The translations under genes and the position numbers were made by a program. The notes under the pieces were generated by a model that was not told where the DNA came from, made no database searches, and saw nothing but the letters and a program-made list of their open reading frames with translations. Of a stretch of 9,631 bases of DNA, positions 1-9,631 are shown in pieces; position 1 is the first letter of the stretch; the number at the start of each line of letters is the position of its first letter. The DNA comes from a virus (Duplodnaviria; Heunggongvirae; Uroviricota; Caudoviricetes), in the IMG/VR virus record IMGVR_UViG_2778261515_000017, positions 1 through 9,631 of that record, one strand, 5' to 3'.

Positions 1-1257
1 GTGCTTACCGATACAAAATTAAAAAACCTCAAGCCGCAGGACAAACTGTACAAAGTCTCCGATCGTGACGGGCTGTATGTAGCTGTGCTTACGTCAGGTA
101 CGGTCTCATTTCGCTATGACTACCGTATCAACGGTCGCCGCGAAACACTGGTAATCGGGCAGTATGGGCGTGACGGTATCAGCCTGGCAGAAGCGCGGGA
201 AGAACTGATTGCTGCAAAGAAGCTGCTTAAAGCAGGCCAGTCACCGGCTGCGGCTAAACGTGACGGTATCAAAAAGATTCGTGGTGCCGAGACGTTTGCG
301 GTACATACCGACAGTTATATGAAACACGTCATCCTGGCTGACAGTACCCGCGCAATGAAACAGGCGGTGATCGACCGTGACATACTTCCGGTTCTTGGCA
401 ACAAAATGATGGCTGAAATTACCACATCGATGGTTCGTGATTTATGTGACCGGATTGTCGAACGCGGTGGCCGGGCAACAGCAGTACAGGCCAGGGAGAT
501 CATCAGCAGCGTATACCGTCACGCCAATGACCGTGGTCATGGTTTGTTTAATCCTGCGGCTGACATTAAACCTTCGTCTATCGCCATATTTAAACCACGA
601 GAGCGAACACTGACACCAGAAGAAATTGGTCTGTTCTTCCGTATGCTGGATGCCATTGGTGCTATGGGCACTATGAAAATGGCTTTAAAGCTGGTGCTTA
701 TCACTATGGTTCGTAAAGGCGAATTCACCAATGCAACGTGGGATGAAATAGATTTTAAAAAATGGACATGGACAATTCCTTCAGACCGCATGAAGGGAAG
801 TCGGGCGCACGTTATTTACCTGCCTAAACAGGCACAGGATATATTAATCGGGTTGCAGATGTGCGCTGGTGGAAGTGAATATCTGGTTCCTGGTCGTTAC
901 AATTTCCGGAAGCCATTATCTAATGCCGCGCTGAACTCTCTGATCGACAGAACGGTGAAAATAATAAATGAAGATGGTGAGCATATTCAGGACTTCACTG
1001 TACATGATATGCGCCGTACAGCCAGTACGTTGTTGCATGAGGCTGGTTATCCTTCAGACTGGATTGAAAAGGCTCTGGCACATGAGCAGAAAGGTGTGCG
1101 CGCCGTATATAACAAAGCGGAATACGCCAGACAGCGCGCCTACATGTTGCAGCAGTGGGCAGATATGATTGATTCCTGGATTAACGGGGAGCATACGGAT
1201 CTGATTCCGTTCTCCCCGTCGAAGTTTGAGAGGTGGATGGAAGGCAGTAATAAATAA
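1..1257 (+). CDS. int: Phage tyrosine integrase (P4-type, DUF4102-like N-terminal arm-binding domain plus catalytic domain); GTG start at position 1, so the CDS may begin at or just upstream of the window edge
   Basis: 418-aa ORF. N-terminus MLTDTKLKNLKP...GLYVAV...FRYDYR matches the conserved start of P4-family integrases. C-terminal HDMRRTAS...LAHEQKGVRAVYNKAEY matches the catalytic H-x-x-R ... Y region of tyrosine recombinases. Identification is from motif memory, not a search. Confidence 0.85.
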   Translation: MLTDTKLKNLKPQDKLYKVSDRDGLYVAVLTSGTVSFRYDYRINGRRETLVIGQYGRDGISLAEAREELIAAKKLLKAGQSPAAAKRDGIKKIRGAETFAVHTDSYMKHVILADSTRAMKQAVIDRDILPVLGNKMMAEITTSMVRDLCDRIVERGGRATAVQAREIISSVYRHANDRGHGLFNPAADIKPSSIAIFKPRERTLTPEEIGLFFRMLDAIGAMGTMKMALKLVLITMVRKGEFTNATWDEIDFKKWTWTIPSDRMKGSRAHVIYLPKQAQDILIGLQMCAGGSEYLVPGRYNFRKPLSNAALNSLIDRTVKIINEDGEHIQDFTVHDMRRTASTLLHEAGYPSDWIEKALAHEQKGVRAVYNKAEYARQRAYMLQQWADMIDSWINGEHTDLIPFSPSKFERWMEGSNK

Positions 1258-1259
1258 TT

Positions 1260-1919
1260 CTATCCTTCCTGGACTTTGGTAAGCGTCAGATTTCCGCAGA
1301 ACACTGCGCCGGTGTCGATGTACATCTGGTTTGCATACACCAGTGGGTGATGTGCTGGCGTATGACCGAAGATGAACAAATCGGCACCGGTTATCTCCGA
1401 GACAATACCGTCCTGCGCGCCGCTAACCCGCTCACGATTCCATATCACCATTTCTTCCGGTACTGGCTTATCGAATGCGTATTCGTTGTGCGGGTAGTCT
1501 GCGTGGCAGATGACGACCTTCTTATTGCCGGTAACCAGTTCGATAATCATCGGGAGGTTGGTAATCTTTGGCAGAAGGTATTTGAGTTTCACATCCTGCT
1601 CAGAATCAAGTTGGTGCCACCATCCACCGCCGTTTGACATCCAATGTCCGAAACTTCCGCCGTTGACCAGTGCATCCAGCATCATCTGCTCATGGTTGCC
1701 ACGAACAGCTCGGAACCACGGCATAGTAATCAAATCCAGGCATTCGACGTTTTCAGCGCCGCGGTCAACAAGGTCACCAACGGAAATAAGCAAATCGCGC
1801 GCCGGGTCGAATGAAACTTTGTCGAGTTCGTTCATCAGCAGCGTGTAGCACCCATGCAGATCGCCGACGACGAAGATATTGCACCAGTCAGCGCCATTGA
1901 TGCGTTGATATAGGTTCAT
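1260..1919 (-). CDS. Ser/Thr protein phosphatase, lambda PPase (NinI)-like metallophosphoesterase
   Basis: Translation from the internal ATG ([26 protein letters not shown]...GDLVDRG...GNHE...FIFGHTP...) carries the calcineurin-like GDxHG/GDxxDRG/GNHE motifs and is near-collinear with lambda PPase as I recall it. SD GGGAG 8 nt upstream of the ATG at 1919. The 40-codon upstream extension of the track ORF overlaps the methylase gene and is rejected. Confidence 0.85.
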
Positions 1920-2566
1920 GCTACACGCTCCCGCCCCTGGTTGTCTGTTGGTGACAGCGGAGCATTGCTGAATGCATTTGTTAATCCGCCAATATCCAAC
2001 GCGTATCCAGGATGTAGTTGCACTGCCGGGTCTTCGCACTGATTACCCCAAACATCGAAGCCATGAGACGACTGGCGGGCGAACAGTTCAATGCGAGAAA
2101 CATCGCCTAACAATTGCACAAGTTTTTCACGAACGATATCTGGTTTTCTTGAATGCTCAAGCCGCGGTGCGGTAAATGACTGAACGATCCCTGCATTAAT
2201 GCGCGTAGGTAGTTTTCCCTTTACCGCAAACAGGCAATCTTCACTATTGGCGCGAGTCATGTGTCCCATACCCATAACCAGTTTATCTGGTTGTCGGCTA
2301 CCACATTTTATCCACGTGAAGCCCTTCATCGTCATCAGACGAAATCCCCAGGCTTCAACAACTTTTAGTGCTTCGAGTGGTTGTGTTGGCACCCACCACA
2401 TGGCCAACAGACAGTTTTCAGCGGTCAAATCCCACACAGGAAGGCGGCAGATATCCAGCACACTCATAACAGGATATTTAAAGCCGGCACCGCGATTACC
2501 ATCTGCGGCTTTGTCCCGGTATACCCAGGGTGGATCTGCATAGATTAGTGTGTATTTCTTAGTCAT
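1916..2566 (-). CDS. MT-A70-family N6-adenine DNA methyltransferase (DPPW motif)
   Basis: [14 protein letters not shown]...; the DPPW catalytic motif is characteristic of the MT-A70 family. ATG at 2566 preceded by a G-rich SD; the GTG at 2578 is an alternative start. Its TGA stop overlaps the phosphatase ATG (ATGA). Confidence 0.75.
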
Positions 2567-2858
2567 AAACCACCCCACAACATCCTATGCCGCTATAGTC
2601 GCCACGGCGAAGGCCGTTACCTTTTGTGATACATTGGTCCCTGCGAACCGCGATCCTTGCACGCTCAACATCACCAGAAGCAACATCCATACACTGAAGC
2701 CAAAGGTGAGCGGCAATGCGGAACTGCCCTTTTTTCTCTCTTTCAATCGCGCGTTTTTCGATCTCTATCGCCGCAGGAGTAACGGCGACAATCTTTGACG
2801 GACTGCGCATTGAAACCTTGTTCATGTGATATTTTTCAAGTCGGCTTAACTTTCTCAC
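2559..2858 (-). CDS. ANR-family-like small protein (putative small regulator); start ambiguous (GTG 2858 with SD GAGAGGG, or ATG 2825 without clear SD)
   Basis: 99-aa ORF. Central ...GQFRIAAHLWLQCMDVA... resembles the conserved core of small prophage proteins annotated as ANR family, from memory. Overlaps the methylase start by 8 nt. Confidence 0.45.
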   Translation of the reverse strand: MRKLSRLEKYHMNKVSMRSPSKIVAVTPAAIEIEKRAIEREKKGQFRIAAHLWLQCMDVASGDVERARIAVRRDQCITKGNGLRRGDYSGIGCCGVVYD

Positions 2859-2967
2859 TTAATCCAACCCTCTCTGAAAATTAATGCCAGCAGATAAAGC
2901 CATGCTGAAACAGAGGCCAGGAATAAGTACCATCCTGACCATTTGCTCCAGTGCCTTAGCAGCGCAC

Positions 2968-3216
2968 TCATGCAGCGTTGCTCACAGGACGATATACACG
3001 TTGCTGAACAGGAGGCTTTTTACCTTGGAACTCTGCCGGGCTTGCTGCCTGACGTTCATCAAGCCAACGCTCAACTTCGTCACGGTTCCATGCGCAGCGT
3101 TTGTCAGTGATATACCAGCGTTTAGGAAATTCCCCTGCGCGCTCCATACGGTCGATAGTGCTCCATGACAGTGGCACCACCGCCAGGAGTTCCTTCTTAC
3201 CTAATGCACCTTTCAT
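2968..3216 (-). CDS. AlpA-family HTH DNA-binding protein (MerR-like prophage regulator / candidate excisionase)
   Basis: 82 aa. LLAVVPLSWSTIDRMERAGEFPKRWYITDKRCAWNRDEVERWLDER fits the AlpA/Xis-type pattern (S-x-ST-I-x-R ... G-x-FP ... W ... EV-x-WL). SD GAGG 5 nt upstream of ATG 3216. Confidence 0.7.
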   Translation of the reverse strand: MKGALGKKELLAVVPLSWSTIDRMERAGEFPKRWYITDKRCAWNRDEVERWLDERQAASPAEFQGKKPPVQQRVYRPVSNAA

Positions 3217-3265
3217 AAATACCTCTCTTGGTTGCAGTGCGGCGCGCGTGGCGCCGCGGTGGTGG

Positions 3266-4207
3266 TTACATAGATGTTTCGTTTAATTCTTCCCGACGAA
3301 CGCTGTAAACGTCGGTGGCTTTTGCCAGCAGTTCGTCATCATCTGAAAGTTTTTGTGCAATGTATTTGTAAGCCTTATCCAGTTCGGAGACAGTGCTGTA
3401 ATTCATCGCTGCGCTGGTAAAGGCCATCAGCATTTCTTCTGGATCACGGCTATCCGCTTTACGCGTTTGCTCATCAGGCTTTTTCACTGTTTTAGCGTTG
3501 ATCAGACTATTAATTCCCGCAGCCGTAGTTGTTTGCGGAGTAATGTCTCGCTCAACGCGCGGTGCCGTTTCCTGTAATTCGTCAGGTGTATAGACGCCCA
3601 TGATTACGTCAGGACAGTGCAAGCGAGACCAGCGTTTTGTCGCAAGGTATGCGAGTTGTTGTTTCGGATCGCTGGCCCAAAGTGTGGAGTTTCTTACCTG
3701 TGCCTGAGACAGCATTAACTCGAGCACTCGAGGTTGATCCTCTCCCTTCATGGTTGCCCATACGCGAACACCGCAGCCTTCTTCGTCTTTTATAGTCCAG
3801 CCTGGTGCGATATACGGATTGCCGTTTTTGGATGTTTTCTCAACAAACTTACCGATCACGCGTTCCCACGGCCCGAACCACTCGTAGTTGATGCGATCTT
3901 TTGTTGGCGACATTGTTGAGATAACTGCGTTTACTAATTGGGCTTCATAACCTAGCGTGCCGTTCACAACATGGGTTTTCTGAGCCACGGCAAACGGGTT
4001 CATTCCCCACTGCGCAGCCTGCATTGCCACGGCCATGCAATCAGCTGGTTTCCCGGCGAGGTGCGCCGGTACCGTTACGCGGCTTTGCGCCATTACCTCG
4101 GCGAATTTCATCAGTTGGTTCAAGCCGTCTGGGCTGAAAATAGTTGCAGCAGTGCCAGCGATTGCTGTGTCTACTGGTGCGTTGATGTTTGCGATGTTGT
4201 TGCTCAT
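3266..4207 (-). CDS. recT: RecT/Redbeta-family single-strand annealing protein
   Basis: 313 aa. Shares an ERDITP segment with lambda Bet as I recall it, and sits immediately downstream of an exonuclease gene with a 4-nt ATGA start/stop overlap, the typical exo-SSAP pair. The family call has not been checked by search. Confidence 0.72.
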   Translation of the reverse strand: MSNNIANINAPVDTAIAGTAATIFSPDGLNQLMKFAEVMAQSRVTVPAHLAGKPADCMAVAMQAAQWGMNPFAVAQKTHVVNGTLGYEAQLVNAVISTMSPTKDRINYEWFGPWERVIGKFVEKTSKNGNPYIAPGWTIKDEEGCGVRVWATMKGEDQPRVLELMLSQAQVRNSTLWASDPKQQLAYLATKRWSRLHCPDVIMGVYTPDELQETAPRVERDITPQTTTAAGINSLINAKTVKKPDEQTRKADSRDPEEMLMAFTSAAMNYSTVSELDKAYKYIAQKLSDDDELLAKATDVYSVRREELNETSM

Positions 4208-5025
4208 ATGTACATATCCTGTTTACGTGCCCAGTCAGGGCGTTTAATAATTTCCACGCCACCCCATTCATCATTGATGCGGCATTCGTGATAGGTATTC
4301 AGATCCCGGCGGAACAGAGCGTGCCCGGTATCGACATCCTTCGCATCCAGCTCGAACACGCGTACCGGATACCGACCACAATCAATGCTTTCGCTCACGG
4401 CAAGAAAGAAAAAACCATGCGGCTGACCAGTAACCCTCATTGCGCCTTCACGGTACATTGCGTCCTGCACGTGGTAGCGGAATTCCTCGATGTGGCGAGC
4501 AAAACGATCCATATCTGCAACCTTTTTCACGTCGACGATTACGTTGTGCTCGTTCAGCCATTTGTCTGGACGAATTCGGCACAACTCACCCGTCTCTTCA
4601 TCGTTCCAGTACATTGATGCTTCGCAGTAACCAGGTGCTTCCAGCATCCAGCGTGCCGCCGGGTGAGCCATTGCGCTATCACGCATCAGCTCCAGTTTTC
4701 GCCACTGCTCTGCATCAAGTACCGAAATCCCCATATCCGCTACATCACGAATAAATGCCTCTTCGTCAGCTTTACCTTGTTTTGTCCGACGATCGAATTT
4801 CGGTGAAACGATGAAGCGTTTGTCAAACTCTCTAGGTTCCAGAAGCAGACAGTGCAGAGCAGTACCCATATCCAGTGCAGACTTCTTCTCTTCGTCTTCC
4901 GGAGCAGCCTTCACCCATTTCAGAAGGGCAGGGTTCTTAGCCACCATATCTAGCTGCGACTTACTCACGCCGTCACCGGCGTGGTAGTCCTCGTTGCTGA
5001 TATCGAAATAAATTCCCGGATTCAT
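4204..5025 (-). CDS. RecE-like PD-(D/E)XK exonuclease (nuclease domain only, DUF3799-like)
   Basis: 273 aa. N-terminal GIYFDISNEDYHAGDGVSKSQL resembles the start of the RecE catalytic domain. ...IRPDKW... and ...VIVDVKKV... fit D ... (D/E)xK nuclease motifs. SD GAGGG 7 nt upstream. ATGA overlaps with both neighbouring genes. Confidence 0.7.
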   Translation of the reverse strand: MNPGIYFDISNEDYHAGDGVSKSQLDMVAKNPALLKWVKAAPEDEEKKSALDMGTALHCLLLEPREFDKRFIVSPKFDRRTKQGKADEEAFIRDVADMGISVLDAEQWRKLELMRDSAMAHPAARWMLEAPGYCEASMYWNDEETGELCRIRPDKWLNEHNVIVDVKKVADMDRFARHIEEFRYHVQDAMYREGAMRVTGQPHGFFFLAVSESIDCGRYPVRVFELDAKDVDTGHALFRRDLNTYHECRINDEWGGVEIIKRPDWARKQDMYI

Positions 5026-5321
5026 GCCGCGTCCCTCTGCCCATCAATCTGATCAGCCAGATCCCAGCGGGCGATAATTGCCATTGCCTCGCGCCGGTAG
5101 GCATCCATTAGTTCTTCGAACTCAGGGCTGTCTTTAGCGGCCTCCAGTACTTCCTGGCGAACGCCTTTAACTGTTACAACGTCGAAAGTTGATGCCAGTT
5201 GATGAAGCCGGATACTCTCAATCAGTTCAACTTGTCGGTCATATAGCTGTTCTGACAGGCGGTAGTCCTTGTCGAATGCCAGCATGATTTTTTGAAGATT
5301 TTTCTGCTGATTAACGTTCAT
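5022..5321 (-). CDS. Hypothetical protein (99 aa), unknown function, second gene of the pL-type operon
   Basis: ORF with a strong SD (GGGAGG) 7 nt upstream of ATG 5321 (MNVNQQKNLQ...). Its stop overlaps the exonuclease start (ATGA). No recognisable motif. Confidence 0.55.
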   Translation of the reverse strand: MNVNQQKNLQKIMLAFDKDYRLSEQLYDRQVELIESIRLHQLASTFDVVTVKGVRQEVLEAAKDSPEFEELMDAYRREAMAIIARWDLADQIDGQRDAA

Positions 5322-5323
5322 TA

Positions 5324-5476
5324 TCAGCCCTCCCATATCTCGTTATCGTTGGCCACATCGCGAGCTTCTTTGCTGACGAAAGCCCACTTAATGCCTTCCT
5401 GTAAGGTGCGGAACTTCCAGCTCATGAATCCGCATGCAGTAACGCAGTACCAACCGTTGATGATTTTCCACTGCAT
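5324..5476 (-). CDS. Small ORF (50 aa, Trp/Cys-rich), first ORF downstream of the pL-type promoter; candidate Kil-like or small regulatory peptide
   Basis: ATG 5476 with SD GAGGT 8 nt upstream; translation MQWKIINGWYCVTACGFMSWKFRTLQEGIKWAFVSKEARDVANDNEIWEG. TGA stop lies 2 nt before the next ATG. Below the ORF-track length cutoff; supported only by SD and operon context. Confidence 0.35.
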   Translation of the reverse strand: MQWKIINGWYCVTACGFMSWKFRTLQEGIKWAFVSKEARDVANDNEIWEG

Positions 5477-5495
5477 AACTTGTTACCTCGGTCTG

Positions 5496-5572
5496 TTACC
5501 GTTGAGGTAATAATTATGCGTATATGGTTTGATGTCAATAGATATGAGTTAAAAAAATTACCCGTTAGGTAA
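5496..5572 (-). promoter_or_regulatory. pL-type promoter flanked by two operator palindromes (OL region)
   Basis: Operators TTACCGTTGAGGTAA (5496-5510) and TTACCCGTTAGGTAA (5558-5572), centres 62 bp apart. On the - strand, a perfect -35 TTGACA (complement of 5533-5538), 17-nt spacer, -10 AATTAT (complement of 5510-5515) whose last base is the first base of the downstream operator. Predicted TSS near 5503. Confidence 0.55.
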
Positions 5573-5582
5573 TCGAATAGGC

Positions 5583-5609
5583 AATAAAAAAGCCGCCATA
5601 AGGCGGCTT
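5583..5609 (-). terminator. Rho-independent terminator downstream of the repressor gene (tImm-like)
   Basis: 8-bp GC-rich stem AAGCCGCC/GGCGGCTT (5590-5597 with 5602-5609), 4-nt loop, followed on the - strand by a U-tract (complement of the A-run 5583-5589). No T-tract follows on the + strand, so it is unidirectional. Confidence 0.7.
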
Positions 5610-5629
5610 ACTTACTGAAAAATATGGTT

Positions 5630-6214
5630 TTATTGTTTGTTTTTTTCGTTCTGGTTGATGACAAATTCAATGTAACTTTCGATCTTTGCTTTCTCGGTTT
5701 CGGGTAACAATGCGTAGCGCGAGCGGTCATAGTTGATAGTCGCGGGGTCGTGCGGGTGAATCAGTAATTCATAGCCGTGACGCCCGAATGCGGATGCAAC
5801 ATTCTCCAGGGTGGAAATGGAAACGCTAACCTCATTGTTTAACAGGCGGCTGATTGTCACCTGGGCGACGCCGGATGCGCGGTGAAGTTTTCCCTGAGTT
5901 GAAAGGTCGCGGCTTTCGCTCATCCAGCGTTCCAGGTTGTGAGCCGCCAGCTGACCAATGTCGCTTGGGCCGACAGGCTGAAAACCTTCCTGAGAAAGCG
6001 AGCGATCGATATCAAGCCAGTTACGGGGTTTATTGGCGGCAGCTTCAATTTTTCGCGCAACCTGGTCGCCGATAACCTTCTTGCCAAGAGCCCAGCGGTT
6101 TACCAGATTTGCCTGAGTTCCAAGTTTTTCTGCCATCCGCGTCTGAACACCATTGAATTCACGGTCGATCAAGTCGTTGAGATTTTGCCTGCGGACGTCC
6201 TGGATACTTTTCAT
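5630..6214 (-). CDS. Prophage repressor at the cI position: dual-HTH protein (CII-like N-terminal HTH plus XRE-type HTH), with no LexA/S24 peptidase domain evident
   Basis: 194 aa. ...TRMAEKLGTQANLVNRWA... resembles the lambda CII HTH; ...GKLHRASGVAQVTISRLLNNEVSVSISTLENVASAFG... is XRE-like. Divergent from the Cro-like gene across an operator-rich region and followed by a strong terminator, which is the lambda immunity-region topology. Weak or absent SD, possibly leaderless like cI from pRM. Confidence 0.65.
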   Translation of the reverse strand: MKSIQDVRRQNLNDLIDREFNGVQTRMAEKLGTQANLVNRWALGKKVIGDQVARKIEAAANKPRNWLDIDRSLSQEGFQPVGPSDIGQLAAHNLERWMSESRDLSTQGKLHRASGVAQVTISRLLNNEVSVSISTLENVASAFGRHGYELLIHPHDPATINYDRSRYALLPETEKAKIESYIEFVINQNEKNKQ

Positions 6215-6269
6215 TTTCTGGAAAATCGCCTCATATATGAATCAGTAGATGATTCAATTTAAAGCAATA

Positions 6270-6343
6270 TTACCCAACAGGTAAATGCACCCCATAGGTA
6301 ACTATCCTTGATTTTTGTTACCTTATGGGTGAATATTTATTAT
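6270..6343. promoter_or_regulatory. Divergent OR-type operator region between the repressor and Cro-like genes, with a pR-type promoter
   Basis: Operators TTACCCAACAGGTAA (6270-6284), degenerate GCACCCCATAGGTAA (6287-6301) and TTACCTTATGGGTGA (6318-6332). Rightward promoter candidates: -35 TTGTTA (6315-6320), 17 nt, -10 TATTAT (6338-6343); or -35 TTGATT (6308-6313), 17 nt, -10 GAATAT (6331-6336). Either overlaps the 6318-6332 operator. No convincing leftward (pRM-type) hexamers found. Confidence 0.5.
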
Positions 6344-6368
6344 CTGAAATAAATATCAGGCAATAGCT

Positions 6369-6599
6369 ATGAGCGATAACGGACATTTCGATTTCAAAAA
6401 GCACTGGCTTGCACTTACTCCGGATGAGCGTGAAGCCTTCGCACAGGAAGCCGGAACGACGAGTCACTATATCCATACTCACTTAACAGGTAAGCGCAAA
6501 ATGCCAGGTAAAGTATTGATGAATGGGCTTTTTAAAGCCTGTAAAACAAGACAATGGCTGCGCTCAAAAGCAGAACTGGCATACTTCTTCTACTCATGA
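6369..6599 (+). CDS. Cro-like small HTH regulator (first gene of the rightward operon)
   Basis: 76 aa. HTH-like segment FAQEAGTTSHYIHTHLTGKRKMPGKVLMNGLFKAC. Divergent from the repressor gene; its promoter overlaps an operator palindrome. Confidence 0.55.
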   Translation: MSDNGHFDFKKHWLALTPDEREAFAQEAGTTSHYIHTHLTGKRKMPGKVLMNGLFKACKTRQWLRSKAELAYFFYS

Positions 6600-6620
6600 T
6601 ATCCAGCCACAACCCTCTGT

Positions 6621-6645
6621 AGACCGCCATCCGGCGGTCTTTTCA
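6621..6645 (+). terminator. Rho-independent terminator after the Cro-like gene (tR1-like)
   Basis: Stem AGACCGCC (6621-6628) / GGCGGTCT (6633-6640), loop ATCC, followed by TTTTC. Confidence 0.5.
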
Positions 6646-6749
6646 TATCTATTCGTACCTCAAAGGTAATAAAAAACCAAATATGGTTGATCTTTTTTTT
6701 GTGTCAGCACAAAATAACCGTAATCCCAATACTAATAACAGGGCTTACC

Positions 6750-6950
6750 ATGGAAATCATTACACGTATTGATGCCGCAAAGCGCGGACTTAAACGCTAC
6801 TACACCGGAAAACCATGTAAGCACGGACATGACAGTGAACGCTGGGTTTACAACGGACACTGTGTTGAGTGCACCATGGAATCAAACCGTCGCATCAGGG
6901 CAGAGATTAAGCAGATCATGATTAATTCCTCCCCACAACACTCAAGCTGA
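6750..6950 (+). CDS. Small Cys/His-rich putative zinc-binding protein (66 aa) at the cII position
   Basis: ATG 6750 with SD CAGGG; MEIITRIDAAKRGLKRYYTGKPCKHGHDSERWVYNGHCVEC... with a C-x-H-x-H ... C-x-x-C pattern. The track ORF starting at 6687 uses a TTG and is rejected as an N-terminal extension. Confidence 0.5.
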   Translation: MEIITRIDAAKRGLKRYYTGKPCKHGHDSERWVYNGHCVECTMESNRRIRAEIKQIMINSSPQHSS

Positions 6951-6965
6951 TAGCGGAGATTAATC

Positions 6966-7799
6966 ATGAGCAGACATGCAACAGATTGGGCCTGGGAGAC
7001 AGATCCAGGTAGCTCGTCATTAAAGCTCATACTGCTCTCGATGGCTGACAGAGCCGATGAATATAACCTCTGCTATCCCAGCATAGAACGCCTAGTTAAA
7101 GACACTTGCCTGAATAAAAAAACCGTACAGGCCGGGCTTATATCGCTCATGAAAATGGGGCTTATTTCAGATACCGGAGAGAGAAAGGGAGCGACGAAAA
7201 GAGTGCGGGTTTTCTCTCTTAATATAACCAAAAACGGGAACATTAAAGGCAACCGGGAAGGGGGTAACGATCCCAAAAACGGTAATGTTACCGAAAACGG
7301 GAATATACCCAAAAACGGGATGTTGAATGATCCCAAAAACGGGATGTTGAATGATCCCAAAAACGGGATCCAGAACCAGTCATATAACCAGTCATTTAAC
7401 CAAGAGAGGGAGAGCAGGACAAAAATCGGGGATTCCGTGCCCCATGACCCCGGCGCAAACAACGCCGTGATGAATAACTTTGTTCCTCCAGGTGGGCCAG
7501 GGCAATTAGGCAAATTTGTCATGCATGAACAATGGCAGCCATCAGATGACTTTCTTCGGAAAAGCTCATTGCAGGGAATCTACCTGGGCAGTCTGCCAAC
7601 GGCACAGGAACTTGCAGAGTTCAGAATTTACTGGATGGCTGAGGGTAAGGCATACCATCAGGCGCAGTGGGAGCAGAAGCTGGCAAGGCGCATCCAGTTC
7701 TGTAGACAGAAATCAGGTGAAGTCAGAAAGAGCCTTGACTGGCATAACACTGACTGGATAGATGAGGTGTGGGATGAAATCAACTCCAGAACTTCTTAA
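6966..7799 (+). CDS. Replication initiation protein (O-like): N-terminal winged HTH, central iteron-encoded repeat linker, C-terminal DnaT-like domain
   Basis: 277 aa. N-terminus LKLILLSMADRADEYNLCYPSIERLVKDTCLNKKTVQAGLISLMKMGLI is typical of phage replication-initiator HTH domains. The central NDPKNGML repeats are encoded by the DNA iterons. Immediately upstream of the P homolog. SD GGAG 7 nt upstream. Confidence 0.75.
   Translation: MSRHATDWAWETDPGSSSLKLILLSMADRADEYNLCYPSIERLVKDTCLNKKTVQAGLISLMKMGLISDTGERKGATKRVRVFSLNITKNGNIKGNREGGNDPKNGNVTENGNIPKNGMLNDPKNGMLNDPKNGIQNQSYNQSFNQERESRTKIGDSVPHDPGANNAVMNNFVPPGGPGQLGKFVMHEQWQPSDDFLRKSSLQGIYLGSLPTAQELAEFRIYWMAEGKAYHQAQWEQKLARRIQFCRQKSGEVRKSLDWHNTDWIDEVWDEINSRTS
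7228..7405. repeat. Origin-of-replication iterons inside the O-like gene, plus downstream short direct repeats
   Basis: Six copies of the core CC(A/G)AAAACGG at about 7229, 7273, 7291, 7308, 7332 and 7356. The last three are spaced exactly 24 bp apart and form the palindrome ATCCC-AAAAAC-GGGAT, resembling lambda ori iterons. Followed by AACCAGTCAT direct repeats at 7374-7383 and 7386-7395. Four GATC sites fall within 7269-7370. Confidence 0.65.
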
Positions 7800-8556
7800 T
7801 GAGTACTATCGCTTTCGTGGTGGGCATGACCACTCGACGGTGGTTGCTTCTGCTGACGATGAAAGGGCAAAGAAGGAGCAGGTTGCAAGAATTTTCAACG
7901 AAATGTTTGTCCAGTTGCAGGCTGCATTTCCAGGCAGCATCGCTGCTATCAGCGAACAGGGAAAGCTAAACGAATTTCGAAAACAATGGATGCTTGCGTT
8001 TCTGGAGAATGGGATCACTACAATGGAACAGGTTAACGCTGGTATGCGCCACGCCCGCGCCAGTGAATCTCCGTTCTGGCCGTCGCCTGGGCAATTCATC
8101 AAGTGGTGCAAAGACAGCAAGATGGTTCTTGGCGTCACCATTGACGATGTGATGGCGGAGTTTCATCGGTACAGCAAGGAAAAAAGTTTATATCCTGGTG
8201 GTCCAGAAAGATTCCCGTGGCGACATCCGGTTATGTACTGGGTTGTATGTGATACCCGCCGCGCAATGTATCAGCGCCAGCTTAGCGAGATTGAGGTTGA
8301 GAAACACGCGCGCAGGCTGCTCGATGATTGGGCGAAAAAGGTGGCTTCCGGACAGCAGATACCCGATCCGGTGATCAGCATACAGGCAAAGCCAGAACCC
8401 ATGAGTACGCCTCCGGACACAGGGAGAGACGTTTACCATCCACCAGGGCGAAGTTTCGGGTGCATGCCTAACGCCGCCACCCTGGGGGGAATAACACCGG
8501 CGCAGTGGCTGATGGAGGAATACAGGCGGGGAAAGGCGGCAGGATTTATCAAGTAA
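7774..8556 (+). CDS. P: Replication protein P homolog (DnaB helicase loader)
   Basis: Contains ...FLENGITTMEQVNAGMR...FWPSPGQF..., near-identical to the lambda P segment FRENGITTMEQVNAGMR...FLPSPGQF as I recall it. ATG 7774 with SD GAGG; 26-nt overlap with the end of the O-like gene. Confidence 0.85.
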   Translation: MKSTPELLNEYYRFRGGHDHSTVVASADDERAKKEQVARIFNEMFVQLQAAFPGSIAAISEQGKLNEFRKQWMLAFLENGITTMEQVNAGMRHARASESPFWPSPGQFIKWCKDSKMVLGVTIDDVMAEFHRYSKEKSLYPGGPERFPWRHPVMYWVVCDTRRAMYQRQLSEIEVEKHARRLLDDWAKKVASGQQIPDPVISIQAKPEPMSTPPDTGRDVYHPPGRSFGCMPNAATLGGITPAQWLMEEYRRGKAAGFIK

Positions 8557-8560
8557 TACC

Positions 8561-8581
8561 AGCGCGATAGCGCATTTTTTT
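8561..8581 (+). terminator. Weak terminator-like hairpin plus T-run just after the P stop codon
   Basis: Short stem AGCGC / GCGCA around loop GATA, then a T-run 8575-8581. The stem is only about 5 bp, so this is marginal. Confidence 0.3.
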
Positions 8582-8593
8582 ACGTCTCAATAA

Positions 8594-8670
8594 TTACCTA
8601 TTGGGTAATAAAATATTCTAAACTCTATTGATTTCGTGTCTTATGTGGTTTTTAATTACCTCAAGGGTAA
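8594..8670 (+). promoter_or_regulatory. Third operator-flanked promoter (P3) upstream of the DUF1064-like gene; same geometry as the pL-type cassette
   Basis: Operators TTACCTATTGGGTAA (8594-8608) and TTACCTCAAGGGTAA (8656-8670), centres 62 bp apart. -35 TTGATT (8628-8633), 17-nt spacer, -10 TTTAAT (8651-8656) ending on the first T of the downstream operator. Gap from upstream operator to -35 is 19 nt, as in the pL-type cassette. Confidence 0.5.
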
Positions 8671-8673
8671 ATC

Positions 8674-9021
8674 ATGAGAAAACAGATACAGGCTCTTGGT
8701 CGACTCAAAACAGGCCAGATGAACAAAACAGAATCTGCGTATTGCCAGCACCTTGAGCAGCGTAAACGCGCAGGGGAAATCGCCTGGTATCGATTCGAGG
8801 GTATCAAGCTGCGGTTAGCCGACAACACGTTCTATACGCCCGATTTTGCTGTGATGCTCGCCACCGGAGAGATGGAACTGCACGAAGTGAAAGGGGGATT
8901 CTGGACCGACGACGCCAGGGTGAAAACCAAAGTAGCCGCAGATCAGTATCCGTTCCGAATCATCGGGGTAACGGTTAAACCAAAGAAAGCAGGTGGTGGC
9001 TGGAACATCGAAGAATTCTGA
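8674..9021 (+). CDS. DUF1064-family phage protein (possible PD-(D/E)XK-like fold)
   Basis: 115 aa. ...NKTESAYCQHLEQRKRAGEIAWYRFEGIKLRL...YTPDF...ELHEVKG... matches the DUF1064 signature as I recall it. Its start codon lies 4 nt downstream of an operator palindrome. Confidence 0.6.
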   Translation: MRKQIQALGRLKTGQMNKTESAYCQHLEQRKRAGEIAWYRFEGIKLRLADNTFYTPDFAVMLATGEMELHEVKGGFWTDDARVKTKVAADQYPFRIIGVTVKPKKAGGGWNIEEF

Positions 9022-9082
9022 ATCGACGATCTTTTTAGTTATCAATGTAATCAATAAGTTATGTGGATAAGCGAGGGTAAAG

Positions 9083-9631
9083 ATGGAAAGTATGGCTGAA
9101 GGTACGATCAAAGATTTAGTGGCATCAGGACATGCGTTAGCTGACGACATGACAGGTGCACCATCCGTGCTTGTTCGCTGTTTGGCAACGCAACTGGAAG
9201 TACAACTGGTGCGTGCTAATGCGCTGGCCGAAGACCGCATCACCACCGAACACTGTCAGGCGCTGGCGCTGGAGAACGACACCGCGCGTCAGGTGCAGGT
9301 GTTTGAAGCCGCCTGTCAGTCGGGATGGGGCGGTAAACCGGAAGTACAGACCATTCGTCGTCTGGTGACCGAAAGTGAAGTGGCGGTGGCGGGGAACAGT
9401 AAATTCCGCTTCGTGGGGGCTGATGCCTTCTCGCCAGACGAACTGCGCACCGATTTGTTCAGCGATGACGGGGACGGTTATGTCGACCGCGTGGCGCTCG
9501 ATGCCGCCCTGCTGGAAAAACTCCAGGCTGTCGCTGAACACCTTCGGGAAGCCGAAGGCTGGGAATGGTGCGCCGGACGCATGGAGCCTGTCGGTGAGTG
9601 CCGTGAGGATGCCGGAACATACCGCTGTCTG
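9083..9631 (+). CDS. Unknown acidic protein, 3'-truncated by the window edge (at least 183 codons with no stop); GC-rich relative to the rest of the window
   Basis: ATG 9083 with SD GAGGG 5 nt upstream; the frame stays open to the window end. Translation MESMAEGTIKDLVASGHALADD... is protein-like, whereas the overlapping minus-strand track ORFs look like GC-driven artefacts. No recognisable family. Confidence 0.45.
   Translation, partial: MESMAEGTIKDLVASGHALADDMTGAPSVLVRCLATQLEVQLVRANALAEDRITTEHCQALALENDTARQVQVFEAACQSGWGGKPEVQTIRRLVTESEVAVAGNSKFRFVGADAFSPDELRTDLFSDDGDGYVDRVALDAALLEKLQAVAEHLREAEGWEWCAGRMEPVGECREDAGTYRCL

Follow-up and report, generated by a model that had tools for sequence, protein, structure and literature searches.

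Within a 9,631-nt stretch of viral DNA (IMG/VR record IMGVR_UViG_2778261515_000017, positions 1 to 9,631; hereafter the window), the 15-bp palindrome TTACC-N5-GGTAA recurs between genes in what is the early region of a phiV10/epsilon15-like (Uetakevirus) prophage. We propose, with a probability that we put at roughly 0.85 from sequence comparison, that these palindromes are operators of Rep, a non-cleavable, antirepressor-controlled prophage repressor of 194 aa encoded in the window (5630–6214, minus strand). The window is 97–98% identical to phiV10 and its relatives (Uetakevirus, epsilon15-like podophages), and is found at a coverage of at least 80% in 345 of 5426 complete genomes. A prophage of E. 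coli rl0044, inserted beside guaA, is 99.9% identical to the window, and this copy (L004, 39.7 kb, where positions 2001–11631 correspond to the window) was taken whole for the analyses below.

Perfect copies of the palindrome in the window number exactly five (starting at 5496, 5558, 6270, 8594 and 8656), against 0 of 200 dinucleotide-preserving shuffles used to set the chance level. The first-pass annotation of this DNA, which interpreted the palindromes as operators of a dimeric helix-turn-helix (HTH) repressor, had located the same five, and all of them are intergenic in both the open reading frame list and the RefSeq annotation of the prophage. The two degenerate copies that it reported are also real: 6318–6332 (TTACCTTATGGGTGA, one mismatch) and 6287–6301 (GCACCCCATAGGTAA, two mismatches) lie outside genes, and both positions are conserved across five related genomes. 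To these we add a site at 6655–6669 (GTACCTCAAAGGTAA, one mismatch), in the intergenic DNA between the terminator of a cro-like gene and the next gene. When up to two mismatches are allowed the window contains 11 matches compared to 2.7 expected, and eight of them are the intergenic sites just described. The three matches within genes (1532, 4973 and 6479) each carry two mismatches and are no more numerous than chance predicts.

The background count against the host that the first-pass annotation had proposed gave nine perfect sites in the 39.7 kb of the prophage and none in 105 kb of chromosome from the same strain. With six one-mismatch sites the prophage total comes to 15, distributed over 11 intergenic regions, while the chromosomal DNA holds five one-mismatch sites (Poisson P ~2e-9); in phiV10, 14 sites with at most one mismatch compare with 0.78 expected. 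Annotated non-coding DNA, 11% of the prophage, accommodates 13 of the 15 sites (binomial P ~3e-11), and the remaining two occupy the opening 80 nt of terS as annotated. TerS homologues begin at residue 28 of the annotated product (MPAEPK, ATG at L004 15120), so these two sites also lie 5' of the real start codon, and the annotated start (L004 15039–15120; phiV10 41–122) is probably 27 codons too far upstream. The extension spans a terminator-like hairpin and two operators 18 bp apart.

The 11 regions are located 5' of int, at the predicted leftward early promoter PL, between rep and cro, 3' of the cro terminator, 5' of the DUF1064 gene, 5' of terS, 5' of the portal operon, 3' and 5' of a BRO-N antirepressor gene, between ant and the tailspike gene, and 5' of the holin gene. 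An earlier count of three regulated promoters was therefore too low, the view being confined to 9.6 kb; the window has four operator-bearing regions with about five promoters, namely PL, a candidate rep promoter (PRM), the rightward promoter PR, a post-cro promoter and a promoter 5' of the DUF1064 gene (P3). The flanking consensus aTTACC...GGTAAt that accompanied that count agrees with our symmetrised logo, aTTACC-wwWww-GGTAAt, with A preceding the half-site in 59% of sites and A or T at the centre in 96%.

We scanned, without bias towards any motif, for every 5-mer palindrome with a 0–11-bp gap in seven genomes of decreasing Rep identity: L004, phiV10, Enterobacter phage Tyrion (78%), prophages of Pseudocitrobacter and Pseudescherichia (~60%), Klebsiella phage BUCT711 (45%) and SPC32H (42%). 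TTACC-N5-GGTAA is the top-ranked palindrome in all seven, and the SPC32H copies occupy the orthologous PL, OR (rep-cro), P3, terS, portal and ant/tailspike positions. Alignments over five or six genomes of the regions around PL (A2), P3 (A3), rep-cro (A7) and post-cro (A8) show no change in the half-sites or in the -35 and -10 elements, in contrast to a variable central N5 and variable flanks. Departures from the perfect palindrome are themselves consistent: the third rep-cro operator (OR3), the post-cro site and the int site deviate in every genome, and the second rep-cro operator (OR2) deviates in the phiV10 clade only, being perfect in SPC32H and BUCT711. This consistency suggests that their affinities are tuned. 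The int site itself, a one-mismatch copy (TTACCTTAAAGGTAT, L004 1944–1958), lies 56 bp 5' of window position 1 and 42 bp 5' of int, and its GGTAT mismatch is identical in phiV10, SPC32H, Tyrion, BUCT711 and the Pseudocitrobacter prophage. The site is near the attachment region, and its ligand might be Int or Xis instead of Rep.

Such conservation bears on the earlier assertion that immunity specificity in this phage is set by the motif. Six other genomes have the same core as their top-ranked palindrome, and the Rep recognition segment NLVNRW is invariant in the window protein, Tyrion and SPC32H. A core common to Reps that are merely 42% identical cannot by itself define the immunity of this phage, and the question it raises is whether these phages are cross-immune or whether specificity resides elsewhere, for example in Ant-Rep pairing.

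By every feature that the sequences allow to be compared, the 194-aa protein falls within the SPC32H Rep/Ant family, a family of non-cleavable, antirepressor-controlled repressors reportedly first described from Salmonella phage SPC32H in work by Kim and Ryu in 2013 and by Kim and colleagues in 2016. Pfam assigns HTH_3 and YdaS-like HTH domains to the protein and detects no Peptidase_S24 domain in it. In phmmer searches its residues 1–190 match SPC32H Rep (5D50_A, E = 4e-42; 42% identity overall) and its C-terminal half (residues 89–190) matches 5D4Z, aligning to the MDD and CAD domains of Rep. The layout by homology is an N-terminal HTH, a middle HTH_3-like dimerisation domain, and a C-terminal domain for tetramerisation and Ant binding. 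The protein is 100% identical to phiV10 p40 and to ORF21 of phage ZX5, whose overexpression brings free phage to zero and reduces holin and endolysin mRNA by 99.97–99.99% (PMC9782041). Palindromic sites are bound by SPC32H Rep in tetrameric form, as a dimer of dimers with DNA-binding pairs drawn from different dimers, and Ant breaks this tetramer (PMC9638917). Its C-terminal domain has a p53-like tetramerisation fold, the same fold that lies behind the ~75-bp loop of pLS20 Rco, and the mechanism of repression by Rep has been described as not well characterised (PMC9986798). The first-pass annotation was thus right in assigning the sites to an HTH repressor and in naming the 194-aa protein as a candidate, as borne out by the 5D50 match and the ZX5 data; its description of that repressor as dimeric does not fit, the homologue being a tetramer.

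The competing candidate is the 76-aa Cro-like protein, whose gene (6369–6599, plus strand) is the first of the PR unit. The palindrome could be mainly or also the operator of this protein, with sites shared with Rep or with Cro as sole ligand, a possibility that we regard as unlikely. In its favour, the protein matches the phage transcriptional-repressor family phrog_35; the versions in this prophage and SPC32H (SPC32H_042) are 75% identical, hence a conserved operator is compatible with Cro binding; and lambda-type Cro proteins are known from textbooks to use the CI operators as well. The best evidence that we have for Rep rather than Cro as primary ligand comes from outside the Rep family. 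Viral contigs were searched using an alignment headed by a CI protein of a Pseudomonas phage, giving ten informative loci (L094–L103); an earlier viral-contig scan had returned 80 loci with an identical N-terminal domain, and a single-protein scan of genome contigs two loci. These Pseudomonas CI proteins (~245 aa) have an N-terminal domain 39–41% identical to that of Rep, followed by a C-terminal half unlike that of Rep which by inspection is apparently of S24 type. The top palindrome in 10 of 10 loci is TTACC-N4-GGTAA, with two copies 5' of cI and a further one 3' of it in eight of these loci; in the PseuP_224 locus (L010) the copies are at 3922, 3961 and 4823. The TTACC half-site therefore tracks the Rep-type N-terminal domain across two C-terminal architectures, with a spacer differing by one base, whereas the small cro-like neighbour in the one Pseudomonas locus checked is unrelated to the Cro-like protein of the prophage. 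A Moraxella phage locus (Mcat9) yielded no clear palindrome. Two further observations speak against Cro: sites at int, terS, portal, ant and holin are more in keeping with silencing in the lysogen than with an early lytic repressor, and a second, conserved palindrome of the type CCWWWWWWGG, situated 7 bp from Rep operators within promoters, is a candidate site for a second regulator.

PL and P3 are built on a common skeleton consisting of an upstream operator, 19 bp, a -35 element, 17 bp, and a -10 element whose final T opens the downstream operator. At PL (5510–5538, minus strand), the perfect operator OL-up (5558–5572) ends 19 bp 5' of the -35 TTGACA (5538–5533), and a 17-bp spacer leads to the -10 AATTAT (5515–5510). 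The second operator, OL-down (5496–5510, TTACCGTTGAGGTAA), is perfect, with half-sites invariant in the six genomes of A2, and its final base coincides with that of the -10, such that OL-down extends over the -10 end together with the start site. The promoter scan scored PL at 10/12, and both CTATTGAC and ATTAT are invariant in A2. At the predicted promoter P3 (8628–8656, plus strand), the perfect O3-up (8594–8608) likewise ends 19 bp 5' of the -35 TTGATT (8628–8633), which is separated by 17 bp from the -10 TTTAAT (8651–8656); CTATTGA and AAT are invariant in A3. O3-down (8656–8670), also perfect, overlaps the last -10 base and stops 3 bp short of the start codon (ATG, 8674) of the DUF1064 gene (8674–9021, plus strand), a Holliday-junction-resolvase-like gene (Pfam; phrog_190) that is the first of the P3 unit.

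The paired operators at both promoters are 62 bp apart, start to start, a distance of ~5.9 helical turns. All Rep-type loci collected gave 145 distinct pairs of neighbouring sites, in which the sequences are related and the counts hence not independent; this spacing accounts for 113 pairs (PL and P3), against three pairs at 61 bp, two at 63 bp and one at 64 bp. The remainder comprise 14 pairs at 48 bp (OR1-OR3), four at 18 bp (terS), two at 17 bp (OR1-OR2) and six other spacings between 30 and 90 bp with one pair each. The DNA between paired operators has diverged (mean column identity 56–71%) yet the half-sites and their spacing are fixed, which points to selection.

The region between the divergent rep and cro genes contains three sites with starts at 6270, 6287 and 6318, spaced by 17 and 31 bp from start to start. 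OR1 (6270–6284) is perfect, OR2 (6287–6301) has two mismatches, with GCACC as its left half, and OR3 (6318–6332) has one (GGTGA). The rightward promoter PR (6308–6337, plus strand) is predicted from a -35 TTGATT (6308–6313), which falls in the invariant block TTGATTTTT of A7, and a -10 at ~6331–6337 (GAATAT or AATATT), with OR3 occupying the spacer between them. An alternative PR offered by the scan, TTGTTA-17-TATTAT, was rejected as it is unconserved in SPC32H and BUCT711, whereas TTGATTTTT is invariant. On the opposite strand, a candidate PRM (6256–6284) has its -35 TTACCT (6284–6279) inside OR1, a 17-bp spacer and a -10 TAAATT (6261–6256); this plausible but tentative assignment was read directly from the sequence, and the element is partly conserved in A7.

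The fourth region of the window follows the cro-like gene and shows the skeleton in a reduced form, with a one-mismatch operator, 17 bp, TTGATC, 17 bp, CAAAAT and a half-site, the distance from operator to half-site being 60 bp. The operator (6655–6669) is conserved in relatives with a weakened outer base. The candidate promoter (6687–6719, plus strand), which would serve a 66-aa gene and the replication genes, has its -35 at 6687–6692 and its -10 at 6710–6715, and the blocks GGTTGATCTTTTTT and AAAAT are invariant in A8. A lone half-site TAACC (6715–6719) takes the place of the downstream operator of PL and P3. A leftward promoter proposed here by the scan, CTGACA-16-CATATT, was dropped as unconserved in A8.

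Terminators precede several of the operator regions: they are found after rep, after cro, after the lambda-P-like gene and before terS, an arrangement that fits a separate Rep-controlled start for each unit. Those after rep (5590–5609, minus strand) and after the cro-like gene (6621–6640, plus strand) are intrinsic terminators detected by the terminator scan and annotated in phiV10. The one after the lambda-P-like gene (8563–8582, plus strand) is weak, a GCGC-GATA-GCGC hairpin followed by T7 that is under the 5-pair threshold of the scan; it is invariant in A3 and listed as a putative terminator in the phiV10 annotation.

From the homology of Rep and the geometry of its sites we infer the following mechanism, in which binding at each site, looping and promoter assignments are all predictions. 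Each 15-bp palindrome would be bound by one pair of N-terminal HTH domains, and each Rep tetramer would contribute two such pairs. Given a tetramer with two DNA-binding pairs and operators that bracket the promoter on the same face of the helix, a single tetramer most likely holds both operators at PL and P3, so that the promoter DNA is bent or looped and RNA polymerase kept out. Two tetramers per promoter, binding without looping, or long-range bridges between PL, OR and P3 may apply instead. In the rep-cro region, the three sites would cover PR (OR3 in its spacer) and the probable rep promoter (OR1), thereby repressing PR and autoregulating rep. Further single or paired sites lie at nearly every other transcription-unit boundary of the prophage, and Rep would accordingly silence each unit directly and not by way of a lambda-style antitermination cascade.

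Four points weigh against assigning the sites to Rep in this manner. First, the N-terminal domain of Rep and the Cro-like protein are both conserved in the genus, so that conservation within it cannot separate one from the other as the binder. Second, the candidate rep promoter coincides in part with the strongest OR site, which reverses the affinity order known from lambda, implying either that rep is tightly autorepressed or that the PRM assignment is wrong. Third, the terS, portal, tailspike and holin sites are not accompanied by a convincing sigma-70 promoter, though these distal sites may act as roadblocks or at activator-dependent promoters. Lastly, a 62-bp loop is energetically costly.

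Release from repression by Rep can be proposed by homology. Beyond the window, at L004 36805–37062, there is an 85-aa open reading frame whose product shares 88% identity with SPC32H Ant. The ant ATG is preceded at 22 bp by a perfect LexA box (CTGTATAAATATACAG, L004 37084–37099), and SPC32H has a LexA box at the same distance from its ant start; the ant promoter is thus predicted to be under host LexA control. Upon induction, the SOS response would clear LexA from this promoter, and Ant would then dismantle the Rep tetramer. The prophage also carries a second antirepressor-type gene (L004 35779–36489), encoding a BRO-N protein with a C-terminus matching the Ant family (phrog_450), and both antirepressor-type genes are flanked by Rep operators.

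The same intergenic regions contain the second palindrome, CCWWWWWWGG, with the best form CCATATATGG, often lengthened to AACCATATATGGTT. The window has three copies, each 7 bp from a Rep operator: 5518–5527 (GCGTATATGG), inside the PL spacer and next to OL-down; 8639–8648 (TCTTATGTGG), in the P3 spacer; and 6677–6686 (CCAAATATGG), which abuts the post-cro -35. Others are at L004 37182–37191 and 39458–39467, and in Tyrion (L006) at 26454, 34217, 35387 and 37310. The statistics are modest, with three perfect copies in Tyrion and four with at most one mismatch against 1.2 expected, and the positions are orthologous across genomes. A second regulator, for instance the Cro-like protein, is a candidate reader of this palindrome. 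The complete scheme, wherein a 62-bp tetramer clamp micro-loops the early promoters, Rep silences about ten terminator-insulated units, and a second regulator, possibly the Cro-like protein, reads CCWWWWWWGG, is tentative, and we think it somewhat doubtful that all three parts are correct together.

Readings in which the motif is not a phage-repressor operator at all are highly improbable. A conserved enterobacterial factor is conceivable as reader, the motif being present in phages of four host genera, but 105 kb of host DNA without a perfect site makes a host transcription factor unlikely; a 5-bp stem with a 5-nt loop is foldable in RNA, but the variants GTACC...GGTAA, TTACC...GGTGA and TCACC...GGTAA break pairing without compensation, and the hairpin was rejected; a restriction or methylation target, also rejected, is expected to be depleted, whereas the motif is enriched at promoters; and the common skeleton of PL and P3 could stem from a duplicated promoter rather than from selection, but half-sites and spacing have stayed fixed while the DNA between them diverged, and sites are present in many non-homologous intergenic regions.

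Regarding the remainder of the window, it encodes a P4-type integrase and a leftward block of genes for a phosphatase, a methyltransferase, an AlpA-like protein, RecT and a PD-(D/E)XK nuclease, followed by the 194-aa repressor, the divergent 76-aa cro-like gene, the 66-aa gene, DnaT-like and lambda-P-like replication genes and the DUF1064 gene. The DnaT-like gene contains tandem repeats (7220–7402), namely 2.6 perfect copies of CCCAAAAACGGGATGTTGAATGAT together with 18-bp and 12-bp arrays, which resemble origin iterons placed inside an initiator gene such as lambda O. Past the DUF1064 gene (window 9083–9631, L004 11215–13812) the prophage departs from phiV10, with a ParB-like pseudogene and an ArdA antirestriction gene where phiV10 has an eae-like block. 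A 9-mer, AACCCTCTG or its complement CAGAGGGTT, has about six intergenic copies and no coding copy in the prophage (for example at window 6609–6617), and these copies in part make terminator-like hairpins, for example beside attL.

A text search of the literature returned no earlier account of these operators, the original SPC32H and epsilon15 papers being outside its reach; the phiV10 record annotates terminators and no operators, and the ZX5 paper defines no operators. Prophages similar to phiV10 are common in E. coli, and phiV10 has been engineered as a reporter phage for O157. An operator map indicates which promoters are silent in lysogens and should aid such engineering. The points most worth pursuing are the promoter-bracketing spacing and the second palindrome beside the operators.

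The closest known system is Rep/Ant of SPC32H. The two share full-length Rep homology, gene order, an Ant 88% identical, the distance of the LexA box, and TTACC-N5-GGTAA at orthologous positions, including the 62-bp pairs. They differ in that Rep is 42% identical, OR2 is perfect in SPC32H and degenerate here, SPC32H has a third site in the PL region (33528), and this prophage has the BRO-N/Ant-like fusion protein. With lambda CI/Cro our system has in common a divergent repressor and cro flanking three palindromic HTH-bound operators, together with a leftward promoter that has operators of its own. In contrast to lambda, Rep is devoid of an S24 autocleavage domain and induction would proceed by antirepressor; promoters are enclosed by operators 62 bp apart, where those of lambda adjoin one another, and operators are also found at many late and accessory units; and the units are split by terminators, each followed by an operator-bearing region of its own. 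No N or Q homologue is present among the annotated product names, although no specific search for one was made.

Dispersed control of this kind is known from P1 C1 and L5 gp71, where one repressor acts at sites spread over the genome to silence many units directly, and in P1 immunity also includes an antirepressor. The sites of P1 and L5 are asymmetric, and the L5 stoperators act in transcribed regions in one orientation. The 15 sites in 11 intergenic regions reported here are similarly dispersed, but they are symmetric and intergenic, and the repressor families are apparently unrelated, the Pfam hits of Rep being of HTH type only. The looping part of our proposal finds its nearest parallels in plasmid regulators, pLS20 Rco and pCF10 PrgX, the latter cited as a looping tetramer (PMC9638917). 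Like Rep, these combine an N-terminal HTH with C-terminal tetramerisation, and their operator regions lie tens of bp apart around a promoter. The spacing is 62 bp here compared to ~75 bp for Rco, looping by Rep is a prediction, and Rep has an extra middle dimerisation domain. The conserved 62-bp bracket offers a concrete and testable prediction, at the DNA level, for the looping role proposed for the p53-like tetramerisation fold.

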